A stretch of 64,000 nt of DNA, from positions 20,708,001-20,772,000 of the forward strand of contig JANJGN010000023.1 of NCBI GenBank assembly GCA_026770705.1. The letters run 5' to 3'. A program made the translations under genes and the position numbers. Under the pieces are notes generated by a model. That model had not been told where the DNA came from. It was given only the letters and a program-made list of their open reading frames with translations, and did no database searches. Shown piece after piece: positions 21,917 to 62,038 of the stretch; the stretch's first letter is position 1; every line of letters begins with the position of its first letter. Source of the DNA: Isurus oxyrinchus (lineage: Eukaryota).

Positions 21917-23109
21917 TAAGTCTTTGGAATGGAACTTGAACCCATGCATAACCTTTGAACTACCACTGCCATTGCTACCACTGAGGCAAAAGTTGACACC
22001 TGGCACCAGGATGCCTGCAATCACTTGGCATGCCGTCCACCACTATAGTGCTGCATCTACTAATGAGGATCAGGAGCAGGAACACCTGACCGAGAGAGTA
22101 ACCTCACCCCACTCCCACCCCCACCCCCCCCCCCCCCCACCATGCCCCCACCCCCTACCCCCCCCCCCCCCCCACACCGGTCCCTCATTTGCCTTGGATG
22201 GGGCAGGTGGAAAAGCAGCAACAAAACTCGCAGAAACAGCTGAGTGCCAGCAAATCCAGCTGCCTTTCACCTGGGAAGCTCTGCCGAAACTCCAGTGGGG
22301 AATTGTTGGAATCCCCAGGGAACTTTTGGGTCAGGAAATTCTAGAGTACGCTTGGCTGATTTGTCTCCCTTGGAATCATGCAAGCTTTTGTGCAATTTTC
22401 ATTTTGCATGAGTCGCTGTTTTAGGGTGCAAAGTTATTTACCAGAATCGTAGAACAAAAAAAAATGTTGCACCTTCAAAATCAATGGTAAGTTTGGAAGC
22501 ATGCTTGTAATGTCAAAAGGTTAATTAGAGTTTCAAGTGATTGCCATTGTAAAAAGATTAAAAGTTAAAACGCTTGAGTACGACTCGAGAGTCAAGTCAA
22601 AGTCCTGAAATATAGAGCAGGATTTTCCACTTGACGTGCAGGGAGTGGGCCCCACATGTCCACGTGTAAAATGAGGCGCGGTGATGTCGGGCGAGCGTCC
22701 TGATGTCACCGTGCACCATCGTGATATTTCACCGGGCAGGGGCGCGATGATGTCTGACGCGTGCCCCCTATTAATTAACAGGCCACTTAAGGCCTTTTAG
22801 TCTTCAAACGAAGTCGATTTTTCGGCGCCCGTCTGATCTTTGTGTCGGCGCACGGGCGCAACGGGCAGGCGGGTAGGATACTTTTCTATTAACCTCATCC
22901 ACGGGCGGGATGAGAGGGCTCAGTGGGGTCATGAATCTGCTCTGTGAAGTATTTATTGGAGATAGTCTTTTAAACTTGCCTGTATGACCTGCAATAGTTC
23001 AGAACACACCCCAGCAGCTTTTTTGGGACTCTTGACCTTCAGGTCAGCACTCTGCAGTGAAGAATCTTTTCTGGGCCTATAGCTTTCAGGAAGCCTTCCC
23101 TTCGCCTGG

Positions 23110-24341
23110 GTATGGGTCTGATCTGTCCACTGGAAGCAGCTCCTCTGAGGAGGAAGGGAGGGCTAGAAGGAGGAGGAGGCCAGGAGTGCACATTCAGCCT
23201 CCAGGGGAGGCACCTTTGGGAGGACAGGCGCAGGCATAAGGGGTGCAGGGCCAAGAGGTAGTCCAAGGCAGAAGGGGCCACAGAAGATGCCACTATCCTG
23301 CTGCCAGGGTATACAGGTGGCAAAACAGCTACCACAATATGACTGAGGTACAGGGCTGAAGGAGGTTCTGACTGTCAAAGAGACAGTGAACTATATCTGT
23401 CAGATGATTGGGCTGAGATCTCCCCTAACTGTGTGGGTGGACATCCCATGCCAGTGGCTCTGAAGGTCACAGCCGCCCTCAACTTCTATGCCTCTGGCTC
23501 CTTCCAGGGCTCGGTGGGTGATCTTTGCAGTGTCCCCCAATCAGCTGTCTGCACTTGTGTAAAGCAGGTTACAGACATTCTGTTCAGACGGATATTGACG
23601 TTCATCCATGCCATTGGCACCAGGCAAGTCAGACACAGTGAGCCAGAGGCTTCGCGGCCATTGCTGGCTTCCCCCGTGTCCGGGGTGCTTTAGACTGTAC
23701 ATATGTGACCATCAAGGCGCCAGCAGGTGAGCCCGGTGCCTTTGTCAACAGGAAGGGCTTCCACTCCATATACATGCAGATAGTGTGTGACCACAGGATG
23801 CTGATTCTACAAGTCTGTGCAAGGTACCCAGGCAGCTCCCACGATATCTACATCCTCAGACACTCCCAGGTGCCGGGGCTCTTCAGTGCTCCGGCTCGGC
23901 TGGATGTTTGGTGCTGGGTGACAAGGGCTATCCCCCAGAAGGTGTCTCATGACGCCTCTCCATCATCCAAGAACAGAAGCTGAGCAGCGGTACAATAAGA
24001 GCCACGGTTCCACAAGGGCTGTGGTGGAGAGAGCCATCGGTCTTCTCAAGATGCTATTCCGATGCCTGGACCGCTCAGGGGACGCACTCCAGTACCCCCC
24101 AGATTGCGTCTCGGTGCTAGTGGTTGCATGTTGCACTCTCCACAATCTTGTGCTGGAAAGGGGGGATGCAGTGGACAATGAAGACATTGACGCAGTGTCT
24201 ATGGCTGCACATGATGAGTCCAGCAGTGATTCCGAGGATGAGCACGCACAGGGAAATGCTGAGGGGGTAGACGCTGACCCGAGACTGCACCAAGGAGGCA
24301 GAGACACCTGGGAGGCTTTAATTCAACGAACCTTCAGTTAG
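23110..24341 (+). pseudogene. Harbinger DDE transposase (HARBI1-like), frameshifted
   Basis: [62 protein letters not shown], spread over several frames. Confidence 0.92.
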
Positions 24342-24660
24342 CACAACACAGATGGAACTTCTGGATAAGCCTGGGCTACCGTCTTGATAGATGATACCTA
24401 AGTGCAAAATCTGCCAGGTCATCAGCACTAACTAAGAGCCTTGTACATAAAGCTGACTGTCCAAAGAAACATTCATGACACTTAAACATATGCATGCAGA
24501 AGAAACGAGCCACCCTCAGCCATGGTCAGACACTTGGCATTTAATGTGTGAATCAGACGTTCTCACAATTATTAAACAATAGTGTCAACAATCCAAAAGA
24601 AATCAAAAGGACCTAATCTTGGGTCAACACAAAAGCACCAGTGAAAAACCTGTGGTGTGC

Positions 24661-27015
24661 CTAATGTGCCTTAAGCATTCATTTCGTGTTGATTCTGCTG
24701 TCCTGTTGGCCTCGATGACCTTGGCGGTCGTCCTCTGGCCTGTGGAGCCTGTGCTGGGCCCGCCTGGGAGGGAGCTGCCAGTTCCATGGCTGGCATCTCC
24801 CCAGTCATCGCAGCCTCACCGGATGATACAGTCACTGGGAGAGGGATGGAGGAGCTGGTGCCCTCATCCCGAGTGCCCTGAGACGAGCCCACAGAGACGA
24901 CAGGCAGCTGCTGCGCCGACGTGAGGTTGCCTTAGACCTCTCTGCTCAACCTGAATGGATGGGCACCGAGCTGGGAAGCTGGATATCCACACCATCTCCC
25001 ACACTGGCAGTGACCAGCTGAGGTCAATGCCGATGTGAGGGCTTGCTGGTCTGAGTGCATCCCCAGGAAGCCCTGGCCGGTCTTCTGGAGTGGCCTCTCC
25101 ACGAGAGTTGCCACTCTCTCCATGGAGGACGCATGGTGCTCTGACCTGTAGCTCATTGCTTCGGCAATCATCCGCATAGACTCCTCCACCACAGAGACCA
25201 AGACAAGTATAGCCTCATGTATCTCCTCCAGATGCTCCCACACACCCGGCTGCATTTCCTGCAGCTACCACGTCGTGGACGACTCCAGAGGCACATCATC
25301 AGGCACCGACTGAGCATGTGCCTGGTCCCCTGCAGGCCTCCGACTGCTGGCGCCATGGGCACTCTCTGTCTCTGCCAGTTCCTCCAGTGACTGTGATGTG
25401 CCCTCACCATTGTGCCCCAGGGCACTAGCCACTGTTTGAATTCTCACTGAGGTGCTAGTATTTGCACTGGTGCCTGCCTCACAGAAATGGTGTGATGCTG
25501 GTGAGACCTCAGGCCCCTCAGGTGTGAGAGGGGGTCTCTGCTGCTCCTCCTCCCGGCTGTGCTCTGATGATGCTGAAGGGAGGAACAAGGACAGTGGATC
25601 AGTTAACGTGCAGCCAGTGACAAACTTCAGCCCTATGCCCCTGGCTCATTACGCGCTCAACCTTCCAGAACCAATAGCCCAGCAATGTTGCAACAATAAC
25701 TAATTTAACAATCTTCAGTGCTATGGCTGTTGGGAGGACAATGCAGACCTCACTGTTGGCCTTAAATACCTGGCCGTGCCCCCCCAGCCTCACCAATGCC
25801 CCTGGGTGTATGATGCCTCTCCAGCTCAAGGGCCCCCTGCTCGAACCAGCTTAATATGGAGAGCTGTGCCTGGCCACCCCTAGTCCTCGCACACTTGGAC
25901 ACATTATGAGCATTCTTCTCTTGAAAAAGAGAGAAGACCATTCATTAGGGCAAATTGCACATGGACTCTGCTTGTGCAGGCCAATCAGAGTGGGGCTAAG
26001 CAAGCCTCCAGTGCCTCCTCTCCCCACTTCAGACAAAGATGCTCAGCCTGCTCCCTACCCCCGCCTCCGCCCCCTTGGACATATGCTGCCTACATCACAT
26101 TAGGAACCACACGGTATTTCCTCCCATAGCAAGGAGGCGCAACCAAGTGCGGTGTAGAGGGCAGCAGATGGTTCTTTGCCATGACACCTTGAGGCTCCCC
26201 TTCCACCTTCTCATCGCCCTGAATAGGACATGTGCTGGAGTTGTCATTACGCGCCCAGCTGCAGCTCCTCCAGGTTGCCCCCAATCTAGTCATGTGCAAC
26301 TAAGAACAACACATGCTGCGGGGGGAGAACTCATCTCCTCATGACCCACTCAGGCTGACCTCAGAATGGGCACTATCTCCTTGGCCACCCAGCAAAGGAA
26401 AAATGTCCGAAATGATTCAATGCAGTTACGACAGTAAGTCTTGGGGTGGGGCTCCTCAGGGGTTAAGGCTACCTGCTGGGTTAAATGCCCAATGCCAACA
26501 TAGTACTTACCCTGCCAGAGTGCAACAAATCGTTGAAGCGCTTGTGGCACTGGATCCAGGTGTGCTGCACCACGTTGTGGGAGCTCACCACCTCCGCCAC
26601 CTCCTCCCAGGCACGTTTGGCCATGTGAGGGGGGCTTCCTCCTCTCATCCTGGGGGACCAACACCTCCCACCGTGTTGCCACCTCCTCGAGGAGGGCAGC
26701 AAGGCAGTCATCAGGAAAACGAGGGGCGCATTGGCCCCCTGCTGGCCTACCCTGCAGCCTGTCCTGCTCCTCTGGCCTACCCTGCAGCCTGCCCTGCTCC
26801 TCTGGCCTACCCTGCAGCCTGCCCTGCTCCTCTGGCCTACCCTGCAGCCTGTCCTGCTCCTCTGGCCTACCCTGCAGCCTGTCCTGCTCCTCTGGCCTAC
26901 CCTGCAGCCTGCCCTGCTCCTCTGGCCTACCCTGCAGCCTGCCCTGCTCCTCTGCCCTTCCCCCAAGCCTGGCCTGCTCACCTGAACCCCTCCGGTGTGG
27001 CCTGGGACTGGCCAT
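24661..27015 (-). pseudogene. Harbinger Myb/SANT-like DNA-binding protein; exons ~27015-26511, 25920-25770, 25572-24661
   Basis: PRFPDDCLAALLEEV..AWEEVAEVVS..QCHKRFNDL; exon 2 EKNAHN..RTRGG; GT donors at 26510 and 25769; exon-2 acceptor mutated to AA; frameshifts. Confidence 0.85.
26742..26951. repeat. 30-bp minisatellite x7 (CTGGCCTACCCTGCAGCCTGYCCTGCTCCT) plus a degenerate eighth unit
   Basis: Seven units differing only at one C/T position; encodes (QGRPEEQ[G/D]RL)n in the Myb frame. Confidence 0.97.
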
Positions 27016-27948
27016 TGTGAGCAGCCTACAAAAGGCTGCCAGGCCTTCTCTTAAACAGATTGCCGGGTCACCATTGGACCTGGTGGTCTGTGCATGCCTA
27101 CTACCGCCCACACACTCCCGCTATCCACAGGAGTTGGGAAATAGGCTGGGCGGGCTTTAATTGGCCCACCCACGTAAAATGGCGGCGCGGTCCCGATTGC
27201 GGGTGGCGATTGGGTCCATGCCTGCATCCGCCCACGCCCGCTCCCACTCCCCCTCCTCCAAAATGGAAAATCCTGGCCATAGAAATTTTATAGGTGATAG
27301 AAATACGGAATAATTCACTACGCTTGAATATGATTAATATAATGCAAATATCTAATATATATTCTATTAATGTTTGCACTAAAAGTCAGGATAATACATT
27401 TAAAGTATGTAAATGGATACTTTAGCAAGTAGAATCTAAAAATAAAATAGACTCAGTGAGAGGTTATCTCAACAAAGGGTTTGTTAAAAATTCTAATCGC
27501 ATTTTTCTGTAAACCACTTTTATAATAAATTAATTCTTATGATCTTTTTACATGACCAGTCATGTATCAAGATGTTCCAGTGACGTAAAAGATAGTTTTA
27601 AATCTCTAATGGGTTTTTATAAATGCATTAATCAAAAGCAGCAAAACTGACATGTGCATTTAAAATTAATAAATAATTGGCTTAAAATGAGTATGTGTAA
27701 ATCTGTAAGGTAATAACCCAGTCTCACTATAGACTTGTATTGTGTAATGAATATACCCTCTGTTTTAGACCTTTCTTTTGTAAAGTGCAAATAAACTCAG
27801 TTCTATGTCTAACGTATATAATCTGTTTTTGTATTGGATATAACTTCAGTTATAGATTTATGAAGATATATCAGCTACACATCTGCTGCAATGTATTGTA
27901 ATTTCAGCTGCTGACCTTTGTTGTGGAAGGTGCACAGCTTGAATTGTC

Positions 27949-33019: not shown

Positions 33020-33372
33020 TTAATATTCTCAACATTACTTCATACCTGAAGACTCTCACCCTGGTAAACCTCTGTATCATGTCTAATGCATTTACACCCT
33101 TCCTGCACTGTGATGTTCAGAATTGTCTACAATACCACAGCTGAGGTTTAACCAGTTAATGATAAAGTTCGAGCAACATTTCTCTCTTTTTGTATTATAC
33201 TCTTCCATTTATTTCCTAGAAGTTCAAAATTATCACACTATTTTACACAGATACAGGAGCTGACAACGAAGGTATTTCTCAGATCTCACCATGCGCTGCA
33301 AAGTGATACATTGTTAGTTGGTACATAGACTGTAGTGCTGTAGTCAGTGATGTGGCATCCTGGATACTTATG

Positions 33373-33951
33373 GGGCAGAATTTTACATTTGGTGTGTGGG
33401 GGCGGGCCTGACACGCCAGAACGTAAAATGGCGCGCAATGATGTCGGGCGTGGGTTCCGACGTTATCGCGCTGTCTCGTGATATTTCGTTCGGCGAGCAC
33501 ACGCTGGAGTTGGCTGCCCGCCCGCTGATAATTGATAGGCCTATCAAGGCCATTAAACAGGCAATAAACATGAATTTTAGTATGGCGAAAAGGCCAAGCA
33601 GCTTTCACGTTTTTTTTTTAGGAAACCTCATCCACGAGCGGGATGAAGTTTCCTAAAGCTATTACAGATGACATAAAAATTTTCTTTGAAAAAAAACATG
33701 TCCCATCTCATGTGACAGTCCCACGAGGGGACATGTTTAATTAAATTTCTCATGTCTTTATTTATTTTGTTATAAAGTGCTTCATTCTCCCTGAGGCACG
33801 GAGCTGCCTCAGGGAGATTGAAGCACTCTTCCATGAGCATGTGCGAAAGACTGCTGGACCCGACTCTCCCTCCTCCCCCTGTCCGCACAGACTCCGCAAC
33901 AGCCCCCATCCGCTCCTGCTGAGCCTGCCTGATGAATGGAAAATCCTGGCC
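33373..33951 (+). mobile_element. Four-hairpin Harbinger MITE
   Basis: TIRs gggcagaatttt / aaaatcctggcc, TSD ATG/ATG; left ~280 bp homologous to the transposase-side end of H1. Confidence 0.9.
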
Positions 33952-34246
33952 ATGTATACAGGTGCATAACAATACTAACTCTTTATGAATAATATAACAC
34001 CATAACAGCGAACCATTTGATTTTTAAACACCTTATCAACTTGCTGTGCCAACTTTAAGGATCTTTGTATATAGACGTCAAAGTCTCTCAGCTCCTCAAT
34101 ACTTTTCAAAAGAGTGCAATTTATACTGCACTGCCTTTCCACATTGGTTCTCCGGTTGTGCATCACTTCATATATCTCTGCGCTGAACTCCACCTGCCGT
34201 GCTTCTGCCCATTTCACCATCCTGTCCATGTTATCCTGAAGCCTAT

Positions 34247-34768
34247 GGCCTGAGCTATCCCTCGTTGGACATGCACGATTGGTGGGCCCAGGAGCGGTCG
34301 GGAAACAGGCCCCCGGCCACAATAGGCCCGTGACCGTGATTTCATGTTGTTTGGCCAATTAACGGCCAGCCAGCGTGAAACGCGCACTGAAAAGCTCAGC
34401 GCTGATGGGGAGGGGGCGGGAAGAGGGCTGATGACAACGTCACCGTGGGTGTGGGTGTGGGCGAGCACTGCGAGAGAGCCCCCTGAAGGCAGACAGCTGC
34501 CTCAGGGAGCTGCAAACCTGCAAATCATGAAATAAAACATAAAAAAGCTGCATCACATGTTCATGCAGCACAATCAAGCACCTGAAAACATACCCCATAA
34601 AAATGCTGTCCACTGATGTTTCTTGCTATTTTACTTCCTAATGGGGATTTCATCCCACCTTTGGATGAGGCTTCATGAAAAATGTAAAGGCCGCCTGGCT
34701 GATTGGCCCGTCCGCCAACCGTAAGGTCAGACAGACCACAAAAAATCGAGTTCAGTTGTGCCATTAAT
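34247..34768 (-). mobile_element. Related hairpin MITE, truncated
   Basis: Contains ccctgaaggca..tgcctcaggg and tcatcc..ggatga hairpins; only one terminus. Confidence 0.65.
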
Positions 34769-35265
34769 TATCCTCATCATGACTTACTGCTTCCTCAAGT
34801 TTTGTATAATCTGCAAATTTTATAATGCTCCTCCCTGCAGCCAAGTCTAGGTCATTTATAAAAATTGTAATGGGCCCAAAACCGGAGAGCATTGCCTCAA
34901 ACCACCTCCCTGTCTGACACGTATCCATCCAGCACCAGCCTTTCTTACCTGCCACTGAGCCAATTTTGTATCCATACAACCATTTTCCTCCAAAGTCCCT
35001 GGGTTTCCATCTTAATGAGCTTTCTGGGCAGTTCTTTGTACAAGGCCTTCTACAGGTCCATTTATACAACATCTGCTGCACTACCTTGATAAATCTTATT
35101 CCCTCATCAAAGAATTCAGTCAAGCGAATCAGTTTTTAACAAATCCATGCTGTCTCTCTTTGCTTAACTCATACCTTCTTGAACTGAAGCTTATTTTGTC
35201 CCAGGTAATGGTTTCCAATTACATCTTCACTACTAATGTTAGGCTGACTGGTGTGTAGTTTCCTA

Positions 35266-35641
35266 GGGCAGCATTTTCCCCCCATCATTTGGCGGGGGGG
35301 GGATGTGCGGGAGCGGGCACAGGCCGGCAGGTTCCCGATCTGCGCCCGTGGTCGGGGGTGCGCCACCATTTTACGTGGGCGGGTTCATGTTTTTTCTGAA
35401 GGCCGCCTGGGCTCTTCACCTGCCTGCCAGCCTTGAGGCTGGACGGGCAGGTCCATTCATTGGTTTAATTACTTTATTAGTGGCCCTAAGTGGCCGTTGA
35501 CAGGTCGGCATGGGCACAGCCGACTCGGCTGCGTGCCCACTGAACTGACAATCTAAATGATGCGTGGTGACCTCGGGACGCTTGCCTGATGTCACCCTGC
35601 ATCATTTTACATGTCGGCGAGCGGACCTCATCCCCCAGCCC
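35266..35641 (-). mobile_element. Internally deleted hairpin MITE
   Basis: Starts gggcagcatttt, ends gccc, TSD CTA/CTA, inside CR1 sequence. Confidence 0.8.
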
Positions 35642-36412
35642 CTAGTTTATCCCTCTCCTCCTTCTTCATTCATGGCATAATATTAGCAATTCTCCAGTCG
35701 TCCGGCACCACTCCTGTATTCAATGAAGGTTGAAAGATAGTGACCAGTGTTTCTGCTATTTCTACCTTCGCTTGTTCCAGCAAACTAAGATGTATTCCAC
35801 CCGGACCAGCTTACTGACCAACTGTTAGTAATGCTAACTTTTTAGTAGATCTTTTCCTTACTTTCTTCTCCTCTTTTAGTGTAACCATTAATCACCTTAA
35901 TACATATGCCATATCCTCAGCCTCGACATGAAGACTTTCTATTTAGGTCGTGAATATGTCCAATTTTATCCCTCCTTAAATGCTTACGTTTTATATTTTT
36001 GTAAAATATTTTAGGATTTAATACTGCTTGGTAATCTTTTCTTGTAACCTCTCTTTAACTCCTATATTGGCTTTTTTCAATTCTCTCAAGTACTCTTCCT
36101 GGTTATTAAGTGAATCTTGTGCCTGACATTTTTCAAAAACATCTTTTTTTCCCATTTTAATGTAACTTTTATTTCCTTTGTCACCCAGAACACATTGGGC
36201 AGAATTTTGCGCTTGACGGGTGGGCGGGGCCAACAGTGGGCGGGCCCAACCGACTTGACGGGTGGGCGGGCGGGCATCCAATCGCCGCTGCCGAAACGGG
36301 CCGTGCCGCCATTTTGCGCGGGCGGGCCAATTAAGACCCGCCCAGCGGGTTTGCCACTCCCATGTACAACGGGAAAATCGAATCGGCGGCGGGTGTGCTC
36401 AGACTGCCAGCT

Positions 36413-36477
36413 CCAATGGGGAACTGGCAGTCTGTATAAAGAGTGGCCAGGCAGTCTGCTTGAGGCAGTTCACCATG
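36413..36477 (+). promoter_or_regulatory. Candidate promoter of the H2 Myb gene
   Basis: CCAAT (36413), TATAAA (36435) and strong Kozak caccATGg (36475). Confidence 0.5.
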
Positions 36478-39400
36478 GCCACTCATAGAGAAGGACATGC
36501 TGGTTTGAGGGCAGAGGAGGAGGAGGAGGAGGAGGAGGAGGAAGAGGAGGAGGACAGGCCAGTGGGAGGCCCAGTGTGCCCCTCGGTTCTCAGATGCCTG
36601 CTGTGCTGTCCTCCTCCAAGAGGTGTCCAACCGTTGGGATATTTTGTATCCAGAGGATGGGAGGAGGAGGGCCCCCCCCACATCACCAGGCAGGCATGGC
36701 AGGAGGTGGCGGTGGCTGTAAGTGCCCATGACGATGTGCGGCGCACCGGGAAACAGTGCCACAAGCGCTTCAATGATTTGTTGCGCTCTGGAAGGGTGAG
36801 TACCATGTCGGCCTCGGCCATTTGACCCAGCAGGTAGCCTTAGCCTTTGAGCCCCTGTCTTAGTATCGTTACTGCATTGGGCATTTAGCACACGCTGGGT
36901 GGGCGAACAGATAGTGACCATGCTTACATCAGCCTTAGTGGTTGAGGAGAAGATGGGTTCTCCCCGCAGCATATGTTGGTGTTTGTCACATTTGAGAAGT
37001 CTGGGGGCAACCTGCAGGGGAGACAGCTGGACACATACTCAGAACTTCAACACATGTCATATTGATGGTGATGAGATGGTGGAAGGGGAGCCTCAAGGTG
37101 TCATGGCCAAGAGCCATCTGCTGGCCTCAGTGCCACCCCCAGTTATACCTTCTTGCCATGGGCGCTAAGACCCATGTGTTATTCAAAGTGATGGACGCCG
37201 AATATGTCAAAGGTGTCCATGAGGGGAGGGGGTTGGGAGCAGGTGTTCTATCTTCTGGTGGCTGATCACCAGTAGTGTGGACAGGAGCCACTGGAGGCCT
37301 CAGATGGGCCACTGTGGTTGGGGTGCGGCGTGCGCGTGCAGAGTACATGAGCGATCAGCCCCAATAAATCCTCTTCTCTGTCCTGCAGGCAGAAACAGAG
37401 AACAATCTCAGGGAGCGCCAGAGGACAGGTGGTGGACACGCCCTGTTCCAGCGCCTCACCACCTATGAGGAGCAGGCCATCGAGCTGGGGAGGAGGCAGG
37501 AGGCCAGGTCGGCAGGTGTCGGCGAGGCTGGGGTCCAGCGGGCAGGTATTTGAGGTCCACAATCCCATTCACTCTGTCTCCCCACCATCCAAAGCACTGA
37601 TGATTGCTGCAATCGTTAATGCTGCATCACTGCTCATTCACAGACTGATACAGTCAGACATGTGGGTCATACACAAAGGTCCCTCAGCCCCTTGAGGATA
37701 CTCATCTCTAGCACCTTCCAAAGTCGCCTTATCCCATTTGTGACCACTATCCCCATGGCCTAACATGCCATGGCATCACTGCTGCACATCCAAAGACGTT
37801 TTGCATCATAGGAGGGTTTGTACCTCCACCACCCTTTCAGCTAGTGCGTCCCACATTACTCTGTCCAAAAGGTCCTCAGCACCTCACCTGTCAACCTCAT
37901 GGCACTCAACTTAAATAAATGCCACCACGTTAGTCATCTCCCTGCCAAGGGGAAATGTTGCCTTCTCTCCACCTGGTCTATGCCCCTCATAATGGTATGA
38001 AGGTCAATAATGTGACCTGTCAATCTCCTGTGCTCCATGGCAAATGTCACAAGTGTTTGCAATGTTTCCACATAACTCCAACTCTCCAGGCCAGCATGCA
38101 TCCAGGTCAGGAACCTCTGCACTCTCCCCAGTCCAATACCATCCCTCCCATGAAGCGCAGGTCACAACTGAACGCAGAAGTGTAGCTGTGACCTCGACAG
38201 CATTTTCTGCACTTGCTCCATGACCTCCCTTTTCCTACATTGTATTCCTCGGCTAATAAAGGCAAGCCTGGCTTTGACCTTGTTAAATGCCTTATGTTCC
38301 TGTTCTGCTACCTTAACGGGTCTGCCCAACAAGGTCCCTGTAATTGTCGTGACTTCCCACGGTCCAACTATTATTCATGTATTCCCGTACCTTGCTTGTC
38401 TTGCCCAAGTGCTTAACCTCACACTTATCCACATAAAATTCCGTGTGGCATTCCTTAGGCCATCTGACCAGCCTGTCTGTGTGCACGTGTAATGTTTGGG
38501 CTTCCTCTTTACTATTTACCACCCCAACAATGTTCGTCTCTTTAGGTTCTTGAAGGCTGAGCGACTTATGAGGTTGGGGAGGAAAAGGATGAAAGGTGTT
38601 ACTGACTGAACACTAACTGATGCACTGTCCTTGTTGTTAATTTCAGCATTACCACCACATGGCTGCCCCCAACAAGTCCAGAGCCCCCCCTCCACACCTG
38701 AGGGGCATCACTTGCAATTAGTGTTACATAATTTCAGCGAGCCAGGCACCAGCACAGCAACAAACACTTCGGTGGGGAATATAATGTCGGCTGGTGTCCC
38801 GGGACGCAGTGGAGGGGGCACTTCACAATCGCTGCAGGAGATGGCACGAACAGAGTGCCAATGCTGCCAGCAGCCGGAGGACTGCAAGAGACCAGGCACA
38901 TGCTGAGTCGGGCAGTGATGATGTGCCTCTGGAGATGTCACCAATGCAACAGCTGCAGGACAAGCGGTAGGTTGCGTGGGAGCATCTGGCAGTGTTGCAT
39001 GAGGGTGTGCTTCAGTTGGTCTCTGCGATGGAGGAGTCCAGGCAGAGTGCATGTGAAGGCATGAACCTCAGGGCAGACTTTCAGGCTTCCTCCACTGAGA
39101 GATTGGTGACTGAGAGTCATGGAGAGGAGGTTCGATCGGATGGAGACTCTTCTGATTGGGTTATGCTCTGACCTGCAAGCCCTCACAGCGTTAATGGCCA
39201 CAGGTGGTCATTCGCAATGTGGGAGATGTTTTGGGCACCAAGTGTTGCCGCTCGGTGCCCATCCATCTGTGGTGAGCAGGGAGGTCCAATGTGACCTCAC
39301 ATCGGTGCAGCAGCTGCCTGTCGTCGCTGCGAGCTCCTCTCAGGGCGCTCCGGATGAGGGCAGCAGCTCCTCCGCCCCTCTGCCAGTGACCGTTGCATCC

Positions 39401-39613
39401 GTTGAGGCTGCGACAATTGGGGAGGTGCCAGTTCTGGAACTGACCACTCCCTCCCAGGCGGGGCCATCACAGGCTCCACAGGCCAGAGGACGCCCGCCAA
39501 GGTCATCGAGGCCAACAGGACAGCAGAGTCAGCAGGCTGTCTCACAAGCCACTCCGAGCGATGGGGCGGCACCAAGACTTAGTACCCGCAAACGTAAGCA
39601 TAAGGCACCTTAG
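36475..39613 (+). pseudogene. Harbinger Myb/SANT-like gene; exons 36475-36795, 37389-37545, 38647-39613
   Basis: Poly-Glu N-terminus, AWQEVAVAVS..QCHKRFNDLLRSGR|gtgag; exon 2 AETENNLRERQRTGGG; canonical AG/GT sites; frameshifts in exons 1 and 3; AATAAA at 39714. Confidence 0.85.
37700..38545 (-). mobile_element. Heavily decayed CR1 LINE 3' fragment inside intron 2 of the H2 Myb gene
   Basis: DRLVRW..EFYVDKCEVKHLGK; RRLTGHIIDLHTIMRGID; absent from the ~200-bp homologous intron of H1. Confidence 0.7.
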
Positions 39614-40007
39614 GCACTCCATGGGTTTGTCACTGGTGATTTTGTGTTGGCCTTAGATTAGGGAAAAAATAGTTGTGTACATCAGAGCGACGTTTGTGTT
39701 TTATGTTGGACTGAATAAAGTGCACTTTTCTGACCATGGCTGAGGGTGTTTCCTTTGTGCTGCATTTGTATGTTTCACAGACATCTCATGAGTGTTTGAG
39801 TGGACATTGATGTTTCTGTACTAAGCCTTAGTTGCAGCTGATGACGTGGAAGATGTAGCACCTAAGTGCCACGTGTGGGAGTGCCAGGCAAGGATGTTTT
39901 ATTTAGAGTAGACATAGCGATGAAGTGTGTCCTGAATTAAATGATTGCACTGGGTTTAAATTATTAGCATCAAGGGATGGAATACTGGCTGATCGATGTG
40001 TGTGGAG

Positions 40008-41110
40008 CTAGCTGAAGGTTCGTTGGATTAAATTGTCCCGGGTGTCCCTGCCTCCTTGGTGTAGTAGTGGGTCAACGTGCTGCCCCTCATCATCACCCTG
40101 TGCTTCCTCATCCTCTGAGGCACTGCTGGATTCATCATGTGCAGCCTCATCCAGGGCATCAAGGTTTTCATCGTCAACTACATCCCCCCTTTCCAGTGCA
40201 AGATAGCGCAGAGCGCAGCGTGCAACCATTATCAGAGAGACATGATCTGGGGGGTACTGGAGTGAGCCCCCTGAGCAGTCCAGGCATTGGAAGCGCATCT
40301 TGAGAAGACCGATGGCTCTCTCCACCACAGCCCTTGTGGTGCCGTGGCTCCTATTGTACCGCTGCTCAGCTTCTGTTCTTGGATGGTGGAGAGGCGTCAT
40401 GAGCCACCTTCTGAGGGGATAGTCCTTGTCACCCAGCAGCCAAACATCCAGCCGAGCCGGAGCACTGAAGAGCCCCGGCACCTGGGAGTGTCTGAGGATG
40501 TAGGCGTCATGGGAGCTGCCTGGGTACCTTGCACAGACTTGTAGAATCAGCATCCTGTGATCACACACTATCTGCACGTTCATGGAGTGGAAGCCCTTCC
40601 TGTTGACGAAGGCACCGGGCTCACCTGCTGGCGCCTTGATGGCCACATGTGTACAGTCTATTGCACCCTGGACATGGGGGAAGCCTGCAATGGCTACAAA
40701 GCCTCTGGCTCACTGTGCCTGACTTGCCTGGTCACAGCGGAAGTGGATGAAGTTCAATGCACGTCTGAACAGAACAATTGTAATCTGCTTGACACAAGTG
40801 TGGATAGCTGATTGGGAGACACCGCAAAGATTACCCACCGAGCCCTGGAAGGAGCCAGAGGTTTAGAAGTGGAGGGCAACGGTGAGCTTCAGAGCCACTG
40901 GCATGGCGTGTCCACCCACACAGTTAGGGGAGATCTCAGGGCCAATCATCTGACAGATATAGTTGACTCTTTCCCTTGACAGATGGAGCCTCCTTTGACA
41001 CTGCACCTCAGTCATATTGAGGTAGCTGCTTCACCGCCTGTATACCCTGGCAGCAGGATAGTGGCGCATTCTGTGGCCCCTTCCACCTTGGACAACCTCT
41101 TGGCCCTGCG
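40008..41110 (-). pseudogene. Harbinger DDE transposase of H2
   Basis: [60 protein letters not shown]; C-terminal ~230 codons open, TGA at 40710-40712. Confidence 0.93.
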
Positions 41111-42627
41111 CCCCTCCACAGGCAAGTTTAAAACACTTTCTGCATTAAATACTTTAGAAAAAACATGAACAACCCCTCTGAGCCCACATATCCCGCCAGT
41201 GCATGAATTTTGTTAAAATGTCACTTACCCGCCTGTCCGTTGGGCCTGTGCGTCGATCGGAAGATCTCACAGGCTCCTCAAAATCAGTGCCAATTGCCGA
41301 GCTCAGCGCACCCGCCCACCTAAATATCGCGATGCCGCGCGTTGAATTCAGGATGCTCACGTGATGTCAGCGCGCGACATTTTAAGCGTTGACTTGCGGG
41401 CTCCGCCACCCGCATGTCAGCCAGAAAATTCTGCCCTTTAACTTTGAATGTTCTGCCTTTTTTCTTCCTAGGGATAAGTCTATTTTGTATCTGAGACATC
41501 TCTTCCTGAATGTCCTCCATTTCCTCTGTTATAGCTTTACCCTGCAATTGCCTCTTCCAATCAACACCCGATTTAGCCCTTATACATGCCTGTGTAATTC
41601 TGTTTTGAATGATCTTTAAAAACCTTTTAAAACATATTTTGTTTTGTTTCTTTTTAAAGCCAATATTAATCAATGAGCAAGTCTCAGAGTATTGGCGACA
41701 ATGGACAAAATGTTTGCTATTTCTTTCCATCAGTCAAGCTAACCTGTTAACTTACTGAGATCAATTATTTTTTCAACTGAAATTAACAATTAGCTGGAAA
41801 TAAATCCTTAATTGTTAGCAGATAATTTGATAGGGCATAGAATAGTCTTCACACATGGCACTAATTTGATGTTTTTATTTAGAGTAGACATAGTGATGAA
41901 GTGTATCCAGAATTAAATGATTGCACTGGTTTTAAATTATTAGCATCAAGGGATGGAATACTGACTGGCAGTTTACCATTGTCAATTTTTCATTTTAATG
42001 TGGTTAGGCTGCTGTTCTGGTTCCCATGAATGTATTATGGCTTGATACAATCAAATACTGCAGTGTTAGTACATTGTATGTTTAAGATCCTAGGGAAGGA
42101 TAAAATATACAGGGAAATGAGAGACAGAGACAGATAGAAAATGCAAAGGAAATAAAAGGGCAAAATGAAATCTACTAAAATGAAAAAGAAACTTAAAAAA
42201 GGGGAAGAAAATAAATAAGAATAACAAAAAGCATTAAGAAAGTGAAAAATTGGACAAATGAAGGAGTCAGAAAGCAAAGAAGAAATGGGAAGATGATCTT
42301 AACAATTCACCCATTTCTACCTGCGATCTCCATTGTATTGGTATTAACTAGCAGTTATTTATTCGAGGAGATTGCTGGTGAGAATTTGATTTTCTTTGTG
42401 ATTCAATGACATAATTCTAAAAAATCTGCAATGGATGTTGCTTTACTTTCCACCTAACCATTCTGGTTTGGAGGTACCTTTTCCTTCTCTCCCTGCTAAA
42501 CGTGCAATTTCTTTATCCCGTCATTTCCTCCTTATGACTGATAGATAAGTTCTCTCCTCTCTCTTCCCTTCCATAGACTGCCAGGACAGCTCCCTTCTGG
42601 ACTCCTAGATAGTAGATAAGAATTATA

Positions 42628-43962: not shown

Positions 43963-44559
43963 GGGCAGAATTTTCCCCCCATTAGGGGGGGAGTTGAAGA
44001 GCAGGTGTGCGGAGGCGCGCCTCTGATCAGCACCCCTGATCGGCCGCCATTTTATGTGTGCATGCACACGAAAGAGCACACTCATCTCCCTGAGGCAAAG
44101 TGCTGTCTCAGGGAGATCGGCTGTGCATTAAAAAATATTAAAAATAGAAAAAAAAATCCCTGACATGTCCTCTCATGTGACACTGTCACATGAGTTGGGA
44201 CATGTCCATAACCTTTAAAAACACTTTAATTAAATTTTTTTAAACCTACATGAAACCTCATCCTGCCTGTGGATGAGGTTTCATGCTATTTCTAAAGCCC
44301 ACCAGGGCCCCTGGCCTGCCCACCAACCTTAGGGTTGGACGGACAGGTCCATGAATTACTTAAATGACACTGTCAAAGGCCTCAGTTGGCCATTGACAGG
44401 TCGGTGGGCACACAGCTGATTTTGCTGACCCCCCCCGCCTTCCTGAAAATTTAAATGGGGCGGGGTGGCATCGGGAGTTCCACCCAACGTCACCGCGCAT
44501 CATTTTATGCGACGGTGAGCGGGCCCTGCCCCCCACTCACCGATGGGAAAATCCTGGCC
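43963..44559 (-). mobile_element. Four-hairpin Harbinger MITE
   Basis: TIRs gggcagaattttccc / gggaaaatcctggcc, TSD TAT/TAT. Confidence 0.9.
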
Positions 44560-45890: not shown

Positions 45891-46651
45891 CATTTGGATT
45901 TTGCCCTCGTTGGGCGGGCTTGGCAGGAGTGGCCAGGAAGCCGAATGCCTCCTGCGATCAGGGTCGGACCGCGATTTCACTCTGGTGGGCCAACTAAGGC
46001 CCCAAAGTTGGCCCCAATTCAACGCTCAGCACTGCCTGTGTGTGGCTGGGAAGTGGGGGGGTGAGGGGGGGGGGGGGCGGTGGGTGGGGGGGCGGGGGGG
46101 TGGGGGGTGGGGGGTGGGTGGGTGAGCAGGGGGGGGCACGAGTGCAAGTTCACGCATGCATGCAGGTACACACTGGAAAAGCTTCCTGAGGCACAGAGCT
46201 GCCTCAGGGAGATGACGATATGAAAAATTAAAAATAAAGATTTTTAAAGCGTTGTAAAACATGTCCCCTCATGTGACTCAGGTCATAGGAACAGAGACAT
46301 GTTATTGATGAAATGCTAACATTTTTATTTTATTTTTATTTGCTGTTGGAAACCTCATCTCACCGTGGGTGAGGTTTCCTAAACAATGCAAAGGCCGCTT
46401 GGGCTTCTCGCTTGCCTGCCAGCTGTAAGGTTGGATGGCCAGCGAAACATTTCTTTCAACTATAACTTTAATGGCCTTAATATGCCTTTTAATTGTCGGC
46501 GGGTGCGCTGCTGACTCCCACACAGGCCCGCTGACCGAAATACCGCACGAGTGCACAATGACATCGGGACGCTCACCCAACGTCATCATGCATCATTTTA
46601 CGCTTGTTCAGGTCGGATGTGTGCCCACCTGAGGGGCATTAGATTCTAGCC
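45891..46651 (-). mobile_element. Four-hairpin Harbinger MITE with expanded G-tract
   Basis: Same hairpins as 43963-44559; right end agattctagcc; left TIR decayed. Confidence 0.75.
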
Positions 46652-47260: not shown

Positions 47261-47385
47261 GGGGGAATTTTACAGCCCCATTATGGAAGGGGTGATGCTG
47301 TAAAATGCAGTGAGCCATTCAAAAGTCCATTTCCTTCGGAGGGACTGGAAAATCCCACTGGTGGGAGGGGTTGTAAAATTCCACC
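47261..47385. mobile_element. Small Harbinger-type MITE nested in an older element (46655-47990)
   Basis: TIRs gggggaattttaca / tgtaaaattccacc, TSD TTA/TTA. Confidence 0.8.
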
Positions 47386-49441: not shown

Positions 49442-50097
49442 GGCCAGAAAGTTACCTGTTTCGGGTGGGCTGGGCAGGAGCGGGTGCGGAGCCAATTACC
49501 ACCCGCGATTGGCTGCGCGCTGCCATTTTATGTGGGTGGGCCAATTAAGGCTTGCCCAGCCTGGTGCATGGCCTGTGCGGGTGGGGAGGAGGAGGGAGAG
49601 TCGGGGCCTTGGCTCTTTGCGTGCGAAAGAGCACAGCGGTCTCCCTGAGCTGCCTCAGGGAGATTAAGTTGTTTAAAAAACTTTGCTATAAATAAAGCAC
49701 AAAATTATTTAAACATGTCCCCTCATGTGACAGTGTCATATGAGCTGGGACATGTTTTTATATTCAGAAAAAATTTATCATCTAATTAATAAAAGCTTTA
49801 GGAAACCTCATCCCGCCCGTGGATGAGGTTTTCTAAAAAACGCAAAGGCTGCCTGGGCTCTTCACCTGCCCGCCAACCTTAAGGTAGGATGGGCAGCATT
49901 GCAAACAACTTTAATTGGTTTTTTTAATAATCTTAATAGGCCGTTGACAGTTCGGCGGGCACGCAGCTGACTCTGGCATGTGTCCACTGAATGAAAGACC
50001 CAGATGATGTGTGATGACATCGGGACACACGCCTGACATCATCTTGTGTCATTTTGCGTGTTGGCATGTCAGGCCCGTCAACAGCCATATTCTGGCC
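49442..50097 (-). mobile_element. Four-hairpin Harbinger MITE
   Basis: Termini ggccagaa / ttctggcc; flanks tta/cta; conserved hairpins. Confidence 0.85.
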
Positions 50098-50864: not shown

Positions 50865-53800
50865 GCAAATGGAGTGCAACCGAAGAAACTGAGTGCAGAC
50901 CTGGAGTTTGGTGAGTTGGGGAACTTCGGTGAAGGGGGAAAGGTGTTTCTTTCCTTTTTTATATCTTTCTCACCCTGTAGGAACTGATTCTTATTCTACT
51001 ACAGGGAAAGGAACTAGCTATTTGGTGAGTATCTAGTAAGTGAGTAAGTTCTATTCAATCCCTAAGGTTCAAAATAGTACACAAATTGGTGGTAAAGTTA
51101 ATAAAATATTAAAGAAAGCAATATAAATAAGTGAAGAATATAAGTAATTATTTGACAAACATTAAGGATGGCAGGACAGGTGATATGTCAAGGCTGCAGC
51201 ATGTAGGGTCTCCTGGATAACAGTGTGATCCAGGGCAAACACATCTGTAGTTTGAGGAGCTTCAGCTCAGAGCCATTGAGCTGGACTCTGAGCTACAGAC
51301 TCTGCGACACATCAGGGAGGGGGAAGGTTACTTGGATGCTTTGTACCAGGAGGCAGTCACACCACTTAGGATAGGGTCTTCTGATTTGGTCAGTGGTCAG
51401 AGACAGGAGGGTGTGACTGTGAATGAGGCAGGTAAGGGGACCCAAGGGCAAAAGTGTCAGCTCTGCAATTGTCCAATAAGTTTGAGGTTCTCTCAAATTG
51501 TTTAGATGAGAGCAGTGGCTGCAGGGTGAATGAGCAAACTGGCCATGGCACCTTGGCACAGGAAGCCATTCAAGTGGGGGGAGAAAAAAGGAACGTGGTT
51601 TTAGTAGGGGACAGTCAGTGGGGGGGATTGACACTGTTCTCTGTAGCAAAGGGCGAGAGTCCAGACAGCTGTGTTACCTGCCCAGTGCCAGGGTTCGGGA
51701 CATCTGCTCAGGGTTGAAGAGAAACTTGCAGTGGGAGGGGGAGGATCCAGTTGTCTTGGCCCACGTAGGTACCAACAACATAGGTAGAACTAGGAAAGAG
51801 GGTCTGCATAGAGAGTATGAGGAGCTGGGCACTAAATTAAAATCAGAAAAGTTATAATCTCTGGATTATTACCTAAATTGCATGCAAATTGGCACGAGGT
51901 ACATAGAATTAGATGGATACACGGCTCAAAGGCTGGTGTGGGAGAAGTGGGTTCTGGTTTGTGGAGCACTGGCACCAGTACTAGGGAAAGTGTGGGCTGT
52001 TCCATTGAGACAGCCTGCACCTGAACCATGCTAAGGCATGTATTCTTGCAAACGACATAACTATGGAAGTAGAGTGGATTTCAAACTAAATAGTGGGAGC
52101 AAGGGATCAAATGTGGAAATATGTGTAATATCAGAGTAGAGGCAAGATGAGAGAGAAAAATAGTAATATGGGAAATAAAGGTCAGAGAATGGCAGGAAGG
52201 GACAGAGAGAAAAAAAACGTAAGCACGCACCAAGAATCAAGATTAGCTGTTATGAAGATAACATAAAGGCTAAACTAAAGGCTCAGTATCTGAATGCGTG
52301 TAGCATTCATAACAAAGTAAATTAATTGAAAGCGCACATTGAAGTAAATAAATATTATCTAACAGCCATCACGGAGACATGGCTACAGGGTTACAAGGGC
52401 TGGGTCCTGAATATTGAGGGTATATGATATTCAAGAAGAATAGGAAGCTAGATAAAGGTGGAGGGGTAACACTGTTAATCAAAGATGGCATTGGTGTAAT
52501 AGTTAGAGATGACCTTGGTTCAGGGGATCAGAATGTAGCATCAGTTTGGGTGGAGATGAGGAATAGTAGGGGAAAGAAGTTACTAGTGGGCGTGGTCTAC
52601 AGGCTCCCTAATAGTAACCACAATGCAGGACAAAGTATACAAGAAGAAATATTGGGTGCTTGTGATAAAGGGACGGCAATAATCATGGCTGACTACATAT
52701 AAACTGGAATAATCAGATTGTCAATAGGAACCTGGATGAGGAGTTCATAGAATGCTTTTGAGATAGTTTCATAGAGCAGTATGCTCTGGGATCAACCAGA
52801 GAACAGGTGAAGTTAGACTTGGTGTTGTGTAATGTGACAGGATTCATTAATTACCTCAGAATAAAGGCACCCCTCAGTAGCAGCAATCAAAATATGATTG
52901 AATTTCACATCCAGTATGAAAGGGGGAAGAGGGGTCTAAGACTAGTATTTTAAACTTAAATAAGGGCAACTATGTGGACACAAAAGCTGAGCTAGCTGAA
53001 GTGAACTGGGAAACTAGGCTAGGGGATAGATCAATACAGAAGGAATGGTAGACATTTAAGGGGATATTTCAGAATACTCAGAATAATTTATTCCTATTAT
53101 AAAGAAAAGTTCCAAAGGGAGGACCCACCATCCATAGTTAATTAATGAAGTTAGGGAAAGCATCAAATTTAAGGAAAAAGCATAGAACTGCACAAAGACG
53201 ATTGGCAGGTCAGATGATTGGTCAGAATATAAAGAAGGGCAGAGAATGACTAAAAGGTTAATCAAGAGGAAGAAATTAGAGTATGAGAGGAAGCTAGCTA
53301 GAAATATAAAAATGGATAGCAAGAGTTTTTAAGAGTATTTAAAAAGGAAAAGAATAAATAAAATAAATGTTGGTTCTCTAGAGAGTGAGACTGGGTGGTT
53401 AATAGTAGATAATAAGGAAATGGCAGATGAAATGAACAAATATTTTGCTTCTGTCTTCACTATAGAGGATACAAAACATTCCAATAATAGCTGTAAATCA
53501 GGAGGTGGCGGGGAGAGGGGATCTTGGCAAAATTATAATCACTAGGGAAACAGTACTGAGCAAACTGAAGGGCCAGAGTTTTGATGTTGGTTTGTGGGGG
53601 CGGGCCTGACATGCCAATGTACTAAATGGCGCGCGATGATGTCGGGGTGTGCGTCCCAAAGCCACCGTGCGTTATTTAGATCTTTCGCTCAGCGGGCGCG
53701 CGTTGGAGGTGGCTGCGCACCCTCCAAACTGTCAAAAGCCTATTAAGGCCACTAGGAAAGTAATTTAGGTAATTAACAGCGCTGCCTGTCCATCCTTAAA

Positions 53801-55925
53801 GTTGGCAGGCAGGAGAAGAGCTGAAGCGGCCTTCCCGTTTTTCAGGAAACCTCATCCACGGAAAGGACGTGTTTAAATAATTTTTCAATTCTTTATTCAA
53901 GATTTCCATTACCAATTTAATCTCCCTGAGGCAGCTCCATGACTCAGGGAGATTGCTGCGCTCTTTCACGTGCATGCATGTGAAAGAGCGCAGGCCCCAA
54001 CTCTCCCTCCTCCCCCCACCTGCACAGGTAATGCTGAGTGCTATCGGCGGTGCGTCACGCCGGACGGGCCTTAATTGGCCCACCTGCGTAAAATGGCAGC
54101 GCACAGCCAATTGCGGGCAATGCTCAGCTCCGTGCCCACCCCCACCCACACCTGCCCAACATAGGTAAGTTTTTGGTCATGGACTTGCAGGCTGACAAGT
54201 CTCCGAGTCCTGATGGACTTCATCCTAGGGCCTTAAAAGAGGTGGCTGTTGAGATAGTAGATGCACTGCTGTTAATTTTCCAAAAATCTCTAGATCCTGG
54301 AATGGTTCCATCAGGTTGGAAAGCAGCAAATATAACCCTTTTATTCAAGAAGGGAAGGAGGCAGAAAACAGGAAACTATAGGCCAGTCAGCTTAACATCT
54401 GTTGTGGAGAAAGTGTTAGAGTCTATTATTAAAGAGGTTATAACTGGGCAATTAGAAAAAACATAGAGTAATCGAGAAGAGTAGGCATGGTTTTTTGAAA
54501 GGGAAATCATGTTTGAAGGAGTAACATGTGCTGTGGATAAAGGGGAGTTTGTAGACGTGCTGTACTTGGATTTCCAGAAGGCATTTGATAAAGTGCCACA
54601 TCAAAGGTTATTGCAGAAAATAAAAGTTCATGGTGCAGGAGGTAACACATTAGCATGGGTAGAAGATTAACTGGCTGGGGGAAAACAGAGAGTATGCATA
54701 AATGGGTCTTTGTCTGTTTGGCAGGATGTGATGAATGGAACCCCACAGGGGTCTGTGCTAGGGCGTCAACTTTTTACAATTTACATCAATGATGAAACAA
54801 AGGCAGCAAAGTATGTTGTGAAGATGACATAAGGAGTTTGCAGACTGATATAGATAGGTTGAGTGAGTGGGCAAAAATCTGGCAAATGGAGTATAATGTG
54901 GGAAAATGTGAAGTTGTTCACTTTGGCAGGAAGAATAAAAAAGCAGAGTATTATTTAAATGGAGAGTGACTGCAGAATTCCAAGGTGCAGAGGGATCTAG
55001 ATGTTCTCGTGAATGAGTCACAAGAAGTTGGTATGCAGGTACAGCATGTAATCAGGAAGGATAATGGAATGCTATCCTTTATTACGAGAGGAATTTAACT
55101 TAAAATTAAGGATGTTATGCTTCAGTTATACCGGGTTTTGAAATGCAGAGCTAGCAGACAGAAGTGTTGATTGGCGATTATACCCACTTACATGGAAGGT
55201 TTCCACAAAGGAAGATTTTGCAGAAAAAACAAAATGTATAGCACTGAAGAGCTACTCAAGGATGGGTGTAAGCACAAAGTGATCCTTGCAGTTCAACAAA
55301 GCTTACAGGTCCTAAGTACAACCACGTTTGTTGACACCAGACCACCCAAACCCAGACTGCATCTCGAATACTGTGTGCAGTTTTGGTCTCCTTGTTTAAG
55401 GAAGGATGTAAATGTGTTGGGTGCAGTTCAGAGGAAGTTTACTAGATTGATACCTGGAATGAGTAGGTTGTCTTATGAGGATAGCTTGGACAGGCTGGGC
55501 TTGTTTCCACTGGAGTTTAGAAGAGTGAGGGGTGACTTGATTGAAGTGTATAAGATCCTGAATAGTATTGACAAGGTGGATGTGGAAAGGGTGTTTCCTC
55601 TTATTGGTGAGTCCAGAACTAGGGGCACAGTTTTAAAATTAGGGGTCGCCCTTTTAGGACAGAGAAGAGGAGAATTTTTTTCTCTCAGAAAGTTGTGTGA
55701 CTTTGGAATTCTCTGTTTCAAAAAGCGGTGAAAGTAGGGTCACTGAATGTTTTTAAGCAAAGGTAGATAGATTCTTGTTAGGCAAGGGAATCAAAAGTTA
55801 TCGGGGGTAGATGGGAATGTGGAACTCAAAACACACACAGATCAACCATGATTTTATTGAATAGTGGAGCAGGATTGAGGGGCCGAATGACCTACTTCTG
55901 CTTCTATTTCGTGTGTTCCATGTTA
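50865..55925 (+). mobile_element. Near full-length degenerate CR1 LINE (ORF1 Zn-finger/SGNH esterase, ORF2 APE-RT)
   Basis: VVLVGDS, LPSARVRDI, HVGTNNI (esterase); KGGGVTLLIK, VGVVYR (APE); NYRPVSLTS, YLDFQKAFDKVPH; HLEYCVQFWSP; TGAG flanks both ends. Confidence 0.9.
53571..54178 (+). mobile_element. Hairpin Harbinger MITE nested in CR1 ORF2
   Basis: Termini ggccagagtttt / aagtttttggtc; flanks aag/atg within the LINE KLM(G/D)L codons. Confidence 0.85.
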
Positions 55926-61351: not shown

Positions 61352-62038
61352 GGGGAGAATTTTTAGCTCCGCGTGCGGGCACACGCCTGACCAGACTGAA
61401 CGTAAAATGACGTGCGATGGCATTCGGCACGTGTCCCGATGTCATCATTCACTTGCATGATATTTTGGTTGGCGGGTATGCGCAGGAGTCGGCAGCTCTC
61501 CCGCCGACAATTAAAAGGCCATTAAAACTGTAATTAAAAGAAATTTTTTGCAGCCCATCCAACCTGACGGCTGGCGGGCAGGCGAAAAGGCCAAGCGGCC
61601 TTTGCATTTTTCAGGAAACCTCATGCACGGGCAGGTTGAAGTTTCCAACGGCAAATAAAAATAAAACTAAAATTTTAAAATTTAATTCATAACATGTCCC
61701 TGCTCCTGAGACAGAGTTGCATGAGGGGGGACATGGTTTATAACATTTTATAAACCTTTATTTTTTTATTTTGCAAACTGTTCATCTCCCAGACGCAGCT
61801 CTGTGCCTCAGGGAGGTTTTTAAGGGTGCAGTCGCGGGCATGCGTGAAGTTCGTGCTCTCCCTCCTCCCCCTCCCACACAGGTAGCGCTGAGCGCTGAGC
61901 GCTGCCTCTCGCATTTCATGCTGCACGGGCCTTAAGTGGCCCGCCAGCGGGAAATCGGGGTCCAGCTCCGATCGTGGATGGCGATCGGCTTCCCGCCCGC
62001 CCCTTCTGAGCCCGCCCAATGAGGGAAAGGTCCACACC
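61352..62038 (+). mobile_element. Four-hairpin Harbinger MITE
   Basis: Starts ggggagaatttt, ends aaaggtccacacc; flanks act/att; conserved hairpins. Confidence 0.82.

Follow-up and report, generated by a model that had tools for sequence, protein, structure and literature searches.

The window analysed here is a 64,000-nt stretch, positions 20708001–20772000 of its contig in a 4.98-Gb assembly. At 33373..33951 on the plus strand lies a dead non-autonomous Harbinger copy of 579 bp, compared with ~704–708 bp for the family, with two internal deletions. Its limits are exact as first predicted: an ATG/ATG target-site duplication (33370–33372 and 33952–33954) flanks both sides, and terminal inverted repeats (TIRs) occupy 33373..33384 and 33940..33951 (both given on the plus strand). 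The four internal inverted repeats expected in this copy, HP-a to HP-d, are all in place. HP-a (33435..33469; arms 33435–33448 and 33456–33469, 7-nt loop) is common to the left ends of autonomous relatives, and three of its pairs covary along the subfamily ladder described below. HP-b (33617..33657; 17-bp arms 33617–33633 and 33641–33657, 7-nt loop) has a conserved core and two covarying outer pairs, and marks the point where the MITE and the autonomous left ends diverge. HP-c (33694..33738) is MITE-specific, derives from an unpaired precursor, carries a 2-nt bulge in its left arm and, in the family, is centred 84 bp from HP-b. The arms of HP-d (33776..33827; 33776–33798 and 33805–33827) are 23 bp long in this subfamily, ladder bin B10, and its 6-nt loop (33799–33804) lies here in the opposite orientation to that of the lineage. 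Finally, a decayed fifth MITE-specific dyad, HP-e (approximately 33822..33860), overlaps the outer right arm of HP-d. No open reading frame of at least 120 amino acids lies inside 33373–33951; one 131-residue frame overlaps the element and runs out of it. The host gene in the window encodes an inward-rectifier potassium channel (IRK, E 4e-59), which we take to be GIRK-like. The element sits between its exon at 18544–19248 and a coding piece at ~45370–45580, in an intron that holds the autonomous-type elements H1 and H2 and four MITE copies, and it is probably inert for the host gene.

All eight copies listed in the original prediction exist. Besides the 33373 copy, they are a B01 copy of the oldest subfamily without its left end and with HP-c not yet paired (34247..34769, minus strand), a B17 copy with the middle, HP-b to HP-d and beyond, deleted (35266..35642, minus), a late B19 copy with a TAT/TAT duplication (43963..44559, minus), two early B05 copies (45891..46650, minus; 61352..62035, plus) and two B14 copies, one with a deletion at the HP-d centre (49442..50097, minus) and one deleted from the HP-b loop through HP-c (53571..54178, plus). 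The ordered repeats claimed for these copies need correction at the 34247 copy, in whose subfamily HP-c forms only 7 of 21 pairs, and at the deleted 35266 and 53571 copies, which lack HP-b to HP-d and HP-c, respectively. The reported arm changes are also found: HP-b is of the CATG type at 44249 and of the TAGG type at 33617, and HP-a reads GGTGA/TCACC at 22678 and 35564 compared with GATGA/TCATC at 50011. The insertion at 49442 occurs at the same place in a second organism (organism B), where the flanking contig differs at 41 of 1,661 letters; thus the insertions are old and fixed. Further Harbinger-like remnants lie at 69–3839, 15477–15923 and 46720–47900 of the window (a Myb/SANT-like frame at 3348–3839; self-matches). 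Several reverse transcriptase remnants, presumably of CR1/L2 type, occupy 9668–15264 and 53239–55900.

The consensus built from 30 close copies is ~708 bp long, with 12-bp TIRs that start with GG. Genome-wide, 19,816 places match the exact 24-base HP-b pattern and none matches its backwards control, which excludes a chance origin. A density sample of 1.6 Mb, made up of 160 pieces of 10 kb that were placed at intervals on large contigs rather than drawn at random, 20 of them adjoining the window, holds 123 copies or fragments covering 45,640 bp, 77 with the internal part. Extrapolating this density gives ~240,000 copies, and scaling the exact-pattern count with 77/18 gives ~85,000. An exact 3-bp duplication flanks 76 of 135 two-ended copies and one with at most a single mismatch flanks 117, compared with 10, 1 and 3 exact duplications at 2, 4 and 5 bp. 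The duplication consensus is H-W-D, with TAT and ATA making up 24 of the 76. The TWA duplication that defines the PIF/Harbinger group in the narrow sense of Han et al. (PMC4482050, in the passages available) appears, as TTA or TAA, in only 5 of 76, and the duplications are not strictly ANT (Pangu) or CWG (NuwaI; 7 of 76) either. The family does have the 3-bp duplication, the ~12-bp TIRs starting with GG (where G or A is expected) and the pairing of a DDE transposase with a Myb/SANT partner of PIF/Harbinger elements, together with the absent coding capacity, uniform length of ~704 bp and high copy number of MITEs. The element is a PHIS/Harbinger-type MITE. The central proposal, a Harbinger MITE with maintained internal symmetry, stands, with the maintenance confined to the replicating lineage.

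Two degraded autonomous-type Harbingers in the window provide the comparison. H1 (22615..27278, plus strand; duplication ATA/ATA) has a DDE_Tnp_4 fragment on the plus strand (E 3e-12) and a weak Myb/SANT fragment on the minus strand, and H2 (36200..41436, minus strand) has a stronger DDE_Tnp_4 match (E 4e-35) and again a weak Myb/SANT match; the Myb matches of both (E 0.004–0.008) fall below the curated cut-off. H1 has MITE model positions 3–299 and 568–706 in common with the MITE. Across autonomous-type elements, left ends align with the MITE up to model position 296–299, inside HP-b, and right ends from ~569, so that the middle segment with HP-c, HP-d and HP-e is MITE-specific. As predicted, neither H1 nor H2 contains HP-c or HP-d (best blastn E 0.084). 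The H1 terminus had been said to hold both HP-a and HP-b; it does hold HP-a, and of HP-b only the inner part (6 of 17 pairs form in the H1-type consensus). When five H1-type copies are combined into a consensus, the dyads H0, HP-a, Hf, Hk and Hg of the left end fold there too, in part with different sequence, so this part predates the MITE. As a source of the HP-c/d/e segment, H1 and H2 offered nothing, and a 1.66-Mb sample gave 0 matches to the HP-b, HP-c and HP-d motifs outside the called copies. A TIR-like 12-mer in the linker before the future HP-c, seen in bins B01–B03 (window 34580–34591, minus strand), is perhaps what remains of the end of a nested element from which the internal segment started. 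A 30-bp tandem repeat lies within the Myb-side reading frame of H1 (window 26742–26979).

Over all loci, 283 copies and fragments were called. An alignment of the 205 that span the middle, in which CpG columns and the HP-d loop were masked, yields a single ladder, which we cut into 20 bins (B01–B20) of 7–23 copies each, with B07–B13 oversampled by the searches. Fifteen autonomous left ends attach at the B01 end; the direction is therefore B01 to B20. Dating by CpG retention was set aside, as cluster-specific sites are too biased and common sites (0.41–0.52) give no clear trend before B17. The B06 consensus represents a side subfamily in which two HP-a pairs switched together, A-T to T-A and G-C to C-G, on both arms each.

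The replicating lineage, or trunk, changed fast. Between B05 and B20 the difference amounts to 31% of sites, whereas the decay of individual copies is 0.080 ± 0.004 in B04–06 and 0.066 ± 0.006 in B19–20 (17 unbiased copies each, 245 invariant non-CpG columns), so the lineage evolved about tenfold or more faster than resident DNA. The transition:transversion ratio is 171:320 on the trunk compared with 656:498 in resident copies, where noise in the consensuses and badly aligned AT runs inflate both the speed and the transversion figures. Trunk changes are strand-symmetric (A>G 51, T>C 44), and CpGs persist at 60–85 per consensus from B05. A fast, transversion-rich trunk points to error-prone copying in each round. 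In yeast, repair synthesis after a break is described as 1,000-fold more mutagenic, with quasipalindrome mutations and prominent −1 frameshifts in runs (PMC12891019, in the passages available), and gap repair with template switching has been proposed for the birth of MITEs (PMC3814204, likewise in part). By analogy, both models may apply to this family.

The four predicted hairpins are all real, and folding of the bin consensuses brings the count to about 13 dyads. The structure used below comprises these 13 dyads and 192 pairs, each hairpin being picked from the bins where it looks best. The 11 of 20 bin consensuses that were folded give a chain of local hairpins, with z from −12 to −33 under RNA parameters (12 dinucleotide shuffles each) and from −8 to −33 under DNA parameters, and the minus strand folds about as stably as the plus strand. 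Pairing rises along the ladder, from 7 to 21 of 21 pairs in HP-c, 2 to 14 of 14 in HP-e, 6 to 13 of 13 in H0 and 4 to 11 of 11 in Hk, and the fold energy moves from −272 in B02 to −392 in B10. HP-c and HP-e arose stepwise from unpaired precursors at constant length, and the outer arms of HP-d reach 23 bp in B08–B12 and then shrink as HP-e extends. The oldest subfamilies, in which HP-c and HP-e are not paired, account for 18 of 102 unbiased aligned copies; they spread all the same, so paired HP-c and HP-e are dispensable. No convincing motif is common to the 13 dyads; a TGAGG-like core in HP-b, HP-c and HP-d is seen by eye only.

Along the ladder, two Watson–Crick types occur at 39 of the 192 pairs, compared with 14.4 ± 3.4 (maximum 27) in 2,000 draws of a re-pairing null; some of these two-type pairs owe their status to early bins that predate the dyad concerned, and the choice of stems was made in hindsight. 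With CpG columns left out, 22 of 99 pairs are still two-type where the null gives 6.1. Some pairs pass through several states: 23–41 runs through G-C, T-A and A-T, and 549–563 through C-G, T-A, G-T and A-T. Joint change of the arms, as claimed, is seen in HP-a, in the terminal dyads and in the outer pairs of HP-b; the cores of HP-b, HP-c and HP-d hardly covary and are instead conserved. The outer HP-b pair (G-C or T-A) could be followed genome-wide: it is discordant at 308 of 12,716 loci (2.4%), where ~4,500 would be expected if the arms were unlinked. This 2.4% is the level of later transversion decay (~1–2% per site), hence there was no large unpaired intermediate. Six identical discordant sites at regular spacing (G000:C3:24985972-25017645) represent a tandem or segmental duplication that slightly inflates the discordant count. 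In the 30 raw copies, the named structure has 81% paired cells compared with 35–42% for slid partners, and 220 double-change cells compared with 155 in shuffles. Two whole-structure measures that count pairs or types in these copies did not beat the shuffles (147 and 142 of 500), and RNAalifold found only 11 pairs; on raw copies it is uninformative because of decay and gaps, and the signal thus needs subfamily consensuses or a named structure.

The positions also differ in rate, a sign of selection within the active lineage. From B04 to B20, the cores of HP-b, HP-c and HP-d accumulated 0.15 changes per site, paired GC positions 0.49, all paired positions 0.57 and loops 0.82. The corresponding figures are 1.25 for GC and 1.89 for AT positions of the linkers, whose AT-rich parts align poorly, which inflates their rates and transversions. 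The linkers differ from B06 by 38–56% in B12–B20, and despite this the spacing is kept: the HP-b and HP-c centres are 84 bp apart in 53 of 70 measurable copies (B05–B19), the modal value in 15 of 16 bins with data, and the HP-c and HP-d centres are 85.5 bp apart in 31 of 65 copies. A distance of 84 bp corresponds to eight turns of B-DNA. Such a spacing would fit duplex DNA on which proteins or bends sit in phase. By arithmetic on the dyad columns, this helical phasing is limited to HP-b, HP-c and HP-d; elsewhere the distance between centres does not come to an integral number of turns.

After insertion, the arms part company. At one core T-A pair of HP-b, single changes number 659 and 728 on the two arms and double changes 28, where 24.2 are expected under independence (P 0.25); 9 of these 28 doubles are complementary compared with 12.5 expected, by a hand tally that takes base shares from the first 100 of 1,387 singles. 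Correction of resident copies by template switching, one of the causes suggested originally, is thus not upheld at this single pair. Since the arms behave independently here, resident copies experience neither arm-to-arm repair nor selection at this pair, and such arm-by-arm decay gives no indication of a host function.

We consider that the dyad chain consists of putative symmetric, phased protein-binding sites on duplex DNA that would serve during transposition, re-symmetrised by arm-to-arm copying when new copies were made and filtered by competition among elements, a reading to which we assign roughly even chances. In active elements, putative sites for dimeric proteins likely act together with templated copying. 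First, autonomous Harbingers would have supplied the transposase and a Myb/SANT protein. Error-rich repair at the donor site would then have copied the element, one arm templating the other in a lineage changing some ten times faster. Competition among elements may have retained variants whose HP-b, HP-c and HP-d cores were intact and lay 84 and 85.5 bp apart, close to eight turns of the helix, and whose terminal dyads were paired. Lastly, inserted inactive copies would decay freely. Several results bound this account. The 13 dyads have no convincing motif in common, so simple recognition of every dyad by a single Myb protein is not an option, and long-lived mismatches and the retained bulge of HP-c mean that templated correction is not fast everywhere. 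The constant linker lengths would need strong selection on spacing to be reconciled with the −1 frameshifts of the yeast system. The rise in total pairing along the ladder also fits selection for shape.

The main alternative, possible though less likely, is that the fold itself is selected, as cruciforms in supercoiled DNA or hairpins in single strands, with sequence of minor importance as long as the arms pair. Such selection would account for the covariation seen in numerous dyads whose sequences are unrelated, a few of them passing three types of pair, for the stepwise assembly of HP-c and HP-e from unpaired DNA at constant length, and for the late, harmless loss of closing pairs beside 1-nt and 6-nt loops (555–557 and 455–462); the recurrent inversion of the HP-d loop, treated below, suggests that the palindrome is occasionally extruded or folded. 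The cores of HP-b, HP-c and HP-d are conserved in sequence rather than covarying, however, and a fixed 84-bp spacing is not expected of a free single strand. To our knowledge, no known step of Harbinger transposition requires a folded strand. In a more tentative form of this idea, a cut-and-paste lineage was selected for DNA shape, built a hairpin or cruciform chain de novo and kept it up by compensatory change, and this chain boosted amplification by way of an error-prone, single-stranded copying step, with HP-d as a processed site that flips. If this were true, Harbinger and MITE amplification would include an unrecognised replicative or structure-dependent step.

Pure mutation bias, in which template switching in a fast-copying lineage makes and repairs palindromes without selection, appears unlikely. 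It would explain why changes are concordant in one step, why HP-b was extended exactly where the MITE departs from the autonomous end and why loop inversions resemble template switching, and gap-repair template switching is the mechanism put forward for MITE birth in the available part of PMC3814204. Bias of this kind gives no reason for paired sites to evolve more slowly, but relative to linkers their rate is lower by a factor of 2.5 (GC) to about ten (cores); it also leaves the constant spacing and the kept HP-c bulge unexplained. A structured RNA, as product or mobile intermediate of the element, is very improbable. The predicted folds are very stable and some plus-strand G-T pairs are long-lived (631–643, 549–563), but the fold energy has no strand preference, the trunk changes are symmetric between A>G and T>C, and TIRs and 3-bp duplications are present. 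The RNA fold offered as an option in the original prediction finds no backing either: both strands fold alike, G-T and A-C mismatches occupy 22 and 19 cells outside CpG, and an Rfam search of window positions 33200–62200 returned no match; this balance and the lack of an Rfam family make a strand-specific RNA unlikely. We give least credence of all to the idea that resident copies serve the host, such as by acting as enhancers in the channel-gene intron, and that this keeps up the hairpins, since arms decay independently genome-wide and window copies have deletions through dyads, even though, according to the available passages of PMC12676858, open chromatin of the Xenopus liver is enriched for a palindromic Harbinger MITE; a small co-opted minority of resident copies is possible.

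We compared the family with known systems. Like the Tourist-like PIF/Harbinger MITEs such as rice mPing, as described in the accessible parts of PMC9921582 and PMC4482050, it has short TIRs starting with G, a 3-bp duplication, no open reading frame, a high copy number and ends in common with two-gene (DDE plus Myb/SANT) elements. It differs from them in its H-W-D duplication, which is broader than TWA, and in its length, ~704 bp being longer than most MITEs. In mPing, internal sequence can raise or lower mobility; the available text of that paper suggests nucleosome effects and contains neither 'palindrom' nor 'secondary structure' (PMC9921582). Internal palindromes in a Harbinger MITE are known from Harbinger-N12A_XT of Xenopus tropicalis, which, with Kolobok-N2_XT, resembles this vertebrate family in its internal palindromic repeats and better conserved centre (PMC12676858, passages available). 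The Harbinger-N12A_XT entry is 342 bp with 3,521 copies, its internal repeats are drawn in Supplementary Figure S1 and the same passages report no covariation, spacing, ladder or loop inversion (PMC12676858). Fold-back MITEs and gap-repair derivatives similarly acquire inverted segments through template switching at donor-site repair, as far as described in the passages available, but fold once, as a whole element or by long TIRs, whereas here many local dyads were kept and remodelled over a long ladder (PMC3814204). In the accessible literature, our searches listed no description of dyads that covary in a chain, of a spacing kept constant, of a rapidly changing ladder or of flipping loops. 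In zebrafish Harbinger3_DR, a Myb-like protein reportedly binds short palindromic motifs inside the element ends, said to be one short repeated sequence; the present family instead has 13 long dyads of different sequences that covary. The family bears on the question of how cut-and-paste MITEs reach at least 100,000 copies and outcompete their autonomous partners. It offers a dense fossil record of one lineage, with its kept positions, pairings, distances and pace, and turns the question into one of specific mutants in the core sequence, compensatory stems and the 84-bp spacing.

The HP-d loop is inverted in 274 of 2,648 loci genome-wide (79 of 513 with long arms and 195 of 2,135 with short arms); among 20 'inverted' loci checked, one (L264) is a mis-oriented forward copy. 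The HP-b loop, between 17-bp arms, is inverted in only 16 of 2,806 loci, making HP-d ~17 times more prone. On the tree, 33 inverted tips out of 80 need 25 changes, compared with 25.8 for shuffled labels; the flips are therefore independent events, and the trunk keeps one orientation. Forward and inverted copies do not differ in age by CpG retention (0.40 and 0.43; 19 and 11 copies in 5 of 20 bins) and have similar left-arm mismatches (19 of 287 and 16 of 268). The HP-d flip represents a natural reporter of palindrome inversion in a vertebrate germ line. Among the copies listed, the loop CpG is kept in 95 of 179 inverted and 69 of 200 forward copies (hand tally; P 0.0003), a contrast with P 0.11 in the short-arm set alone, and the near context is the same in both orientations. 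This excess fits either post-insertion flips that require the loop to be intact or a rate of CpG decay that depends on position.
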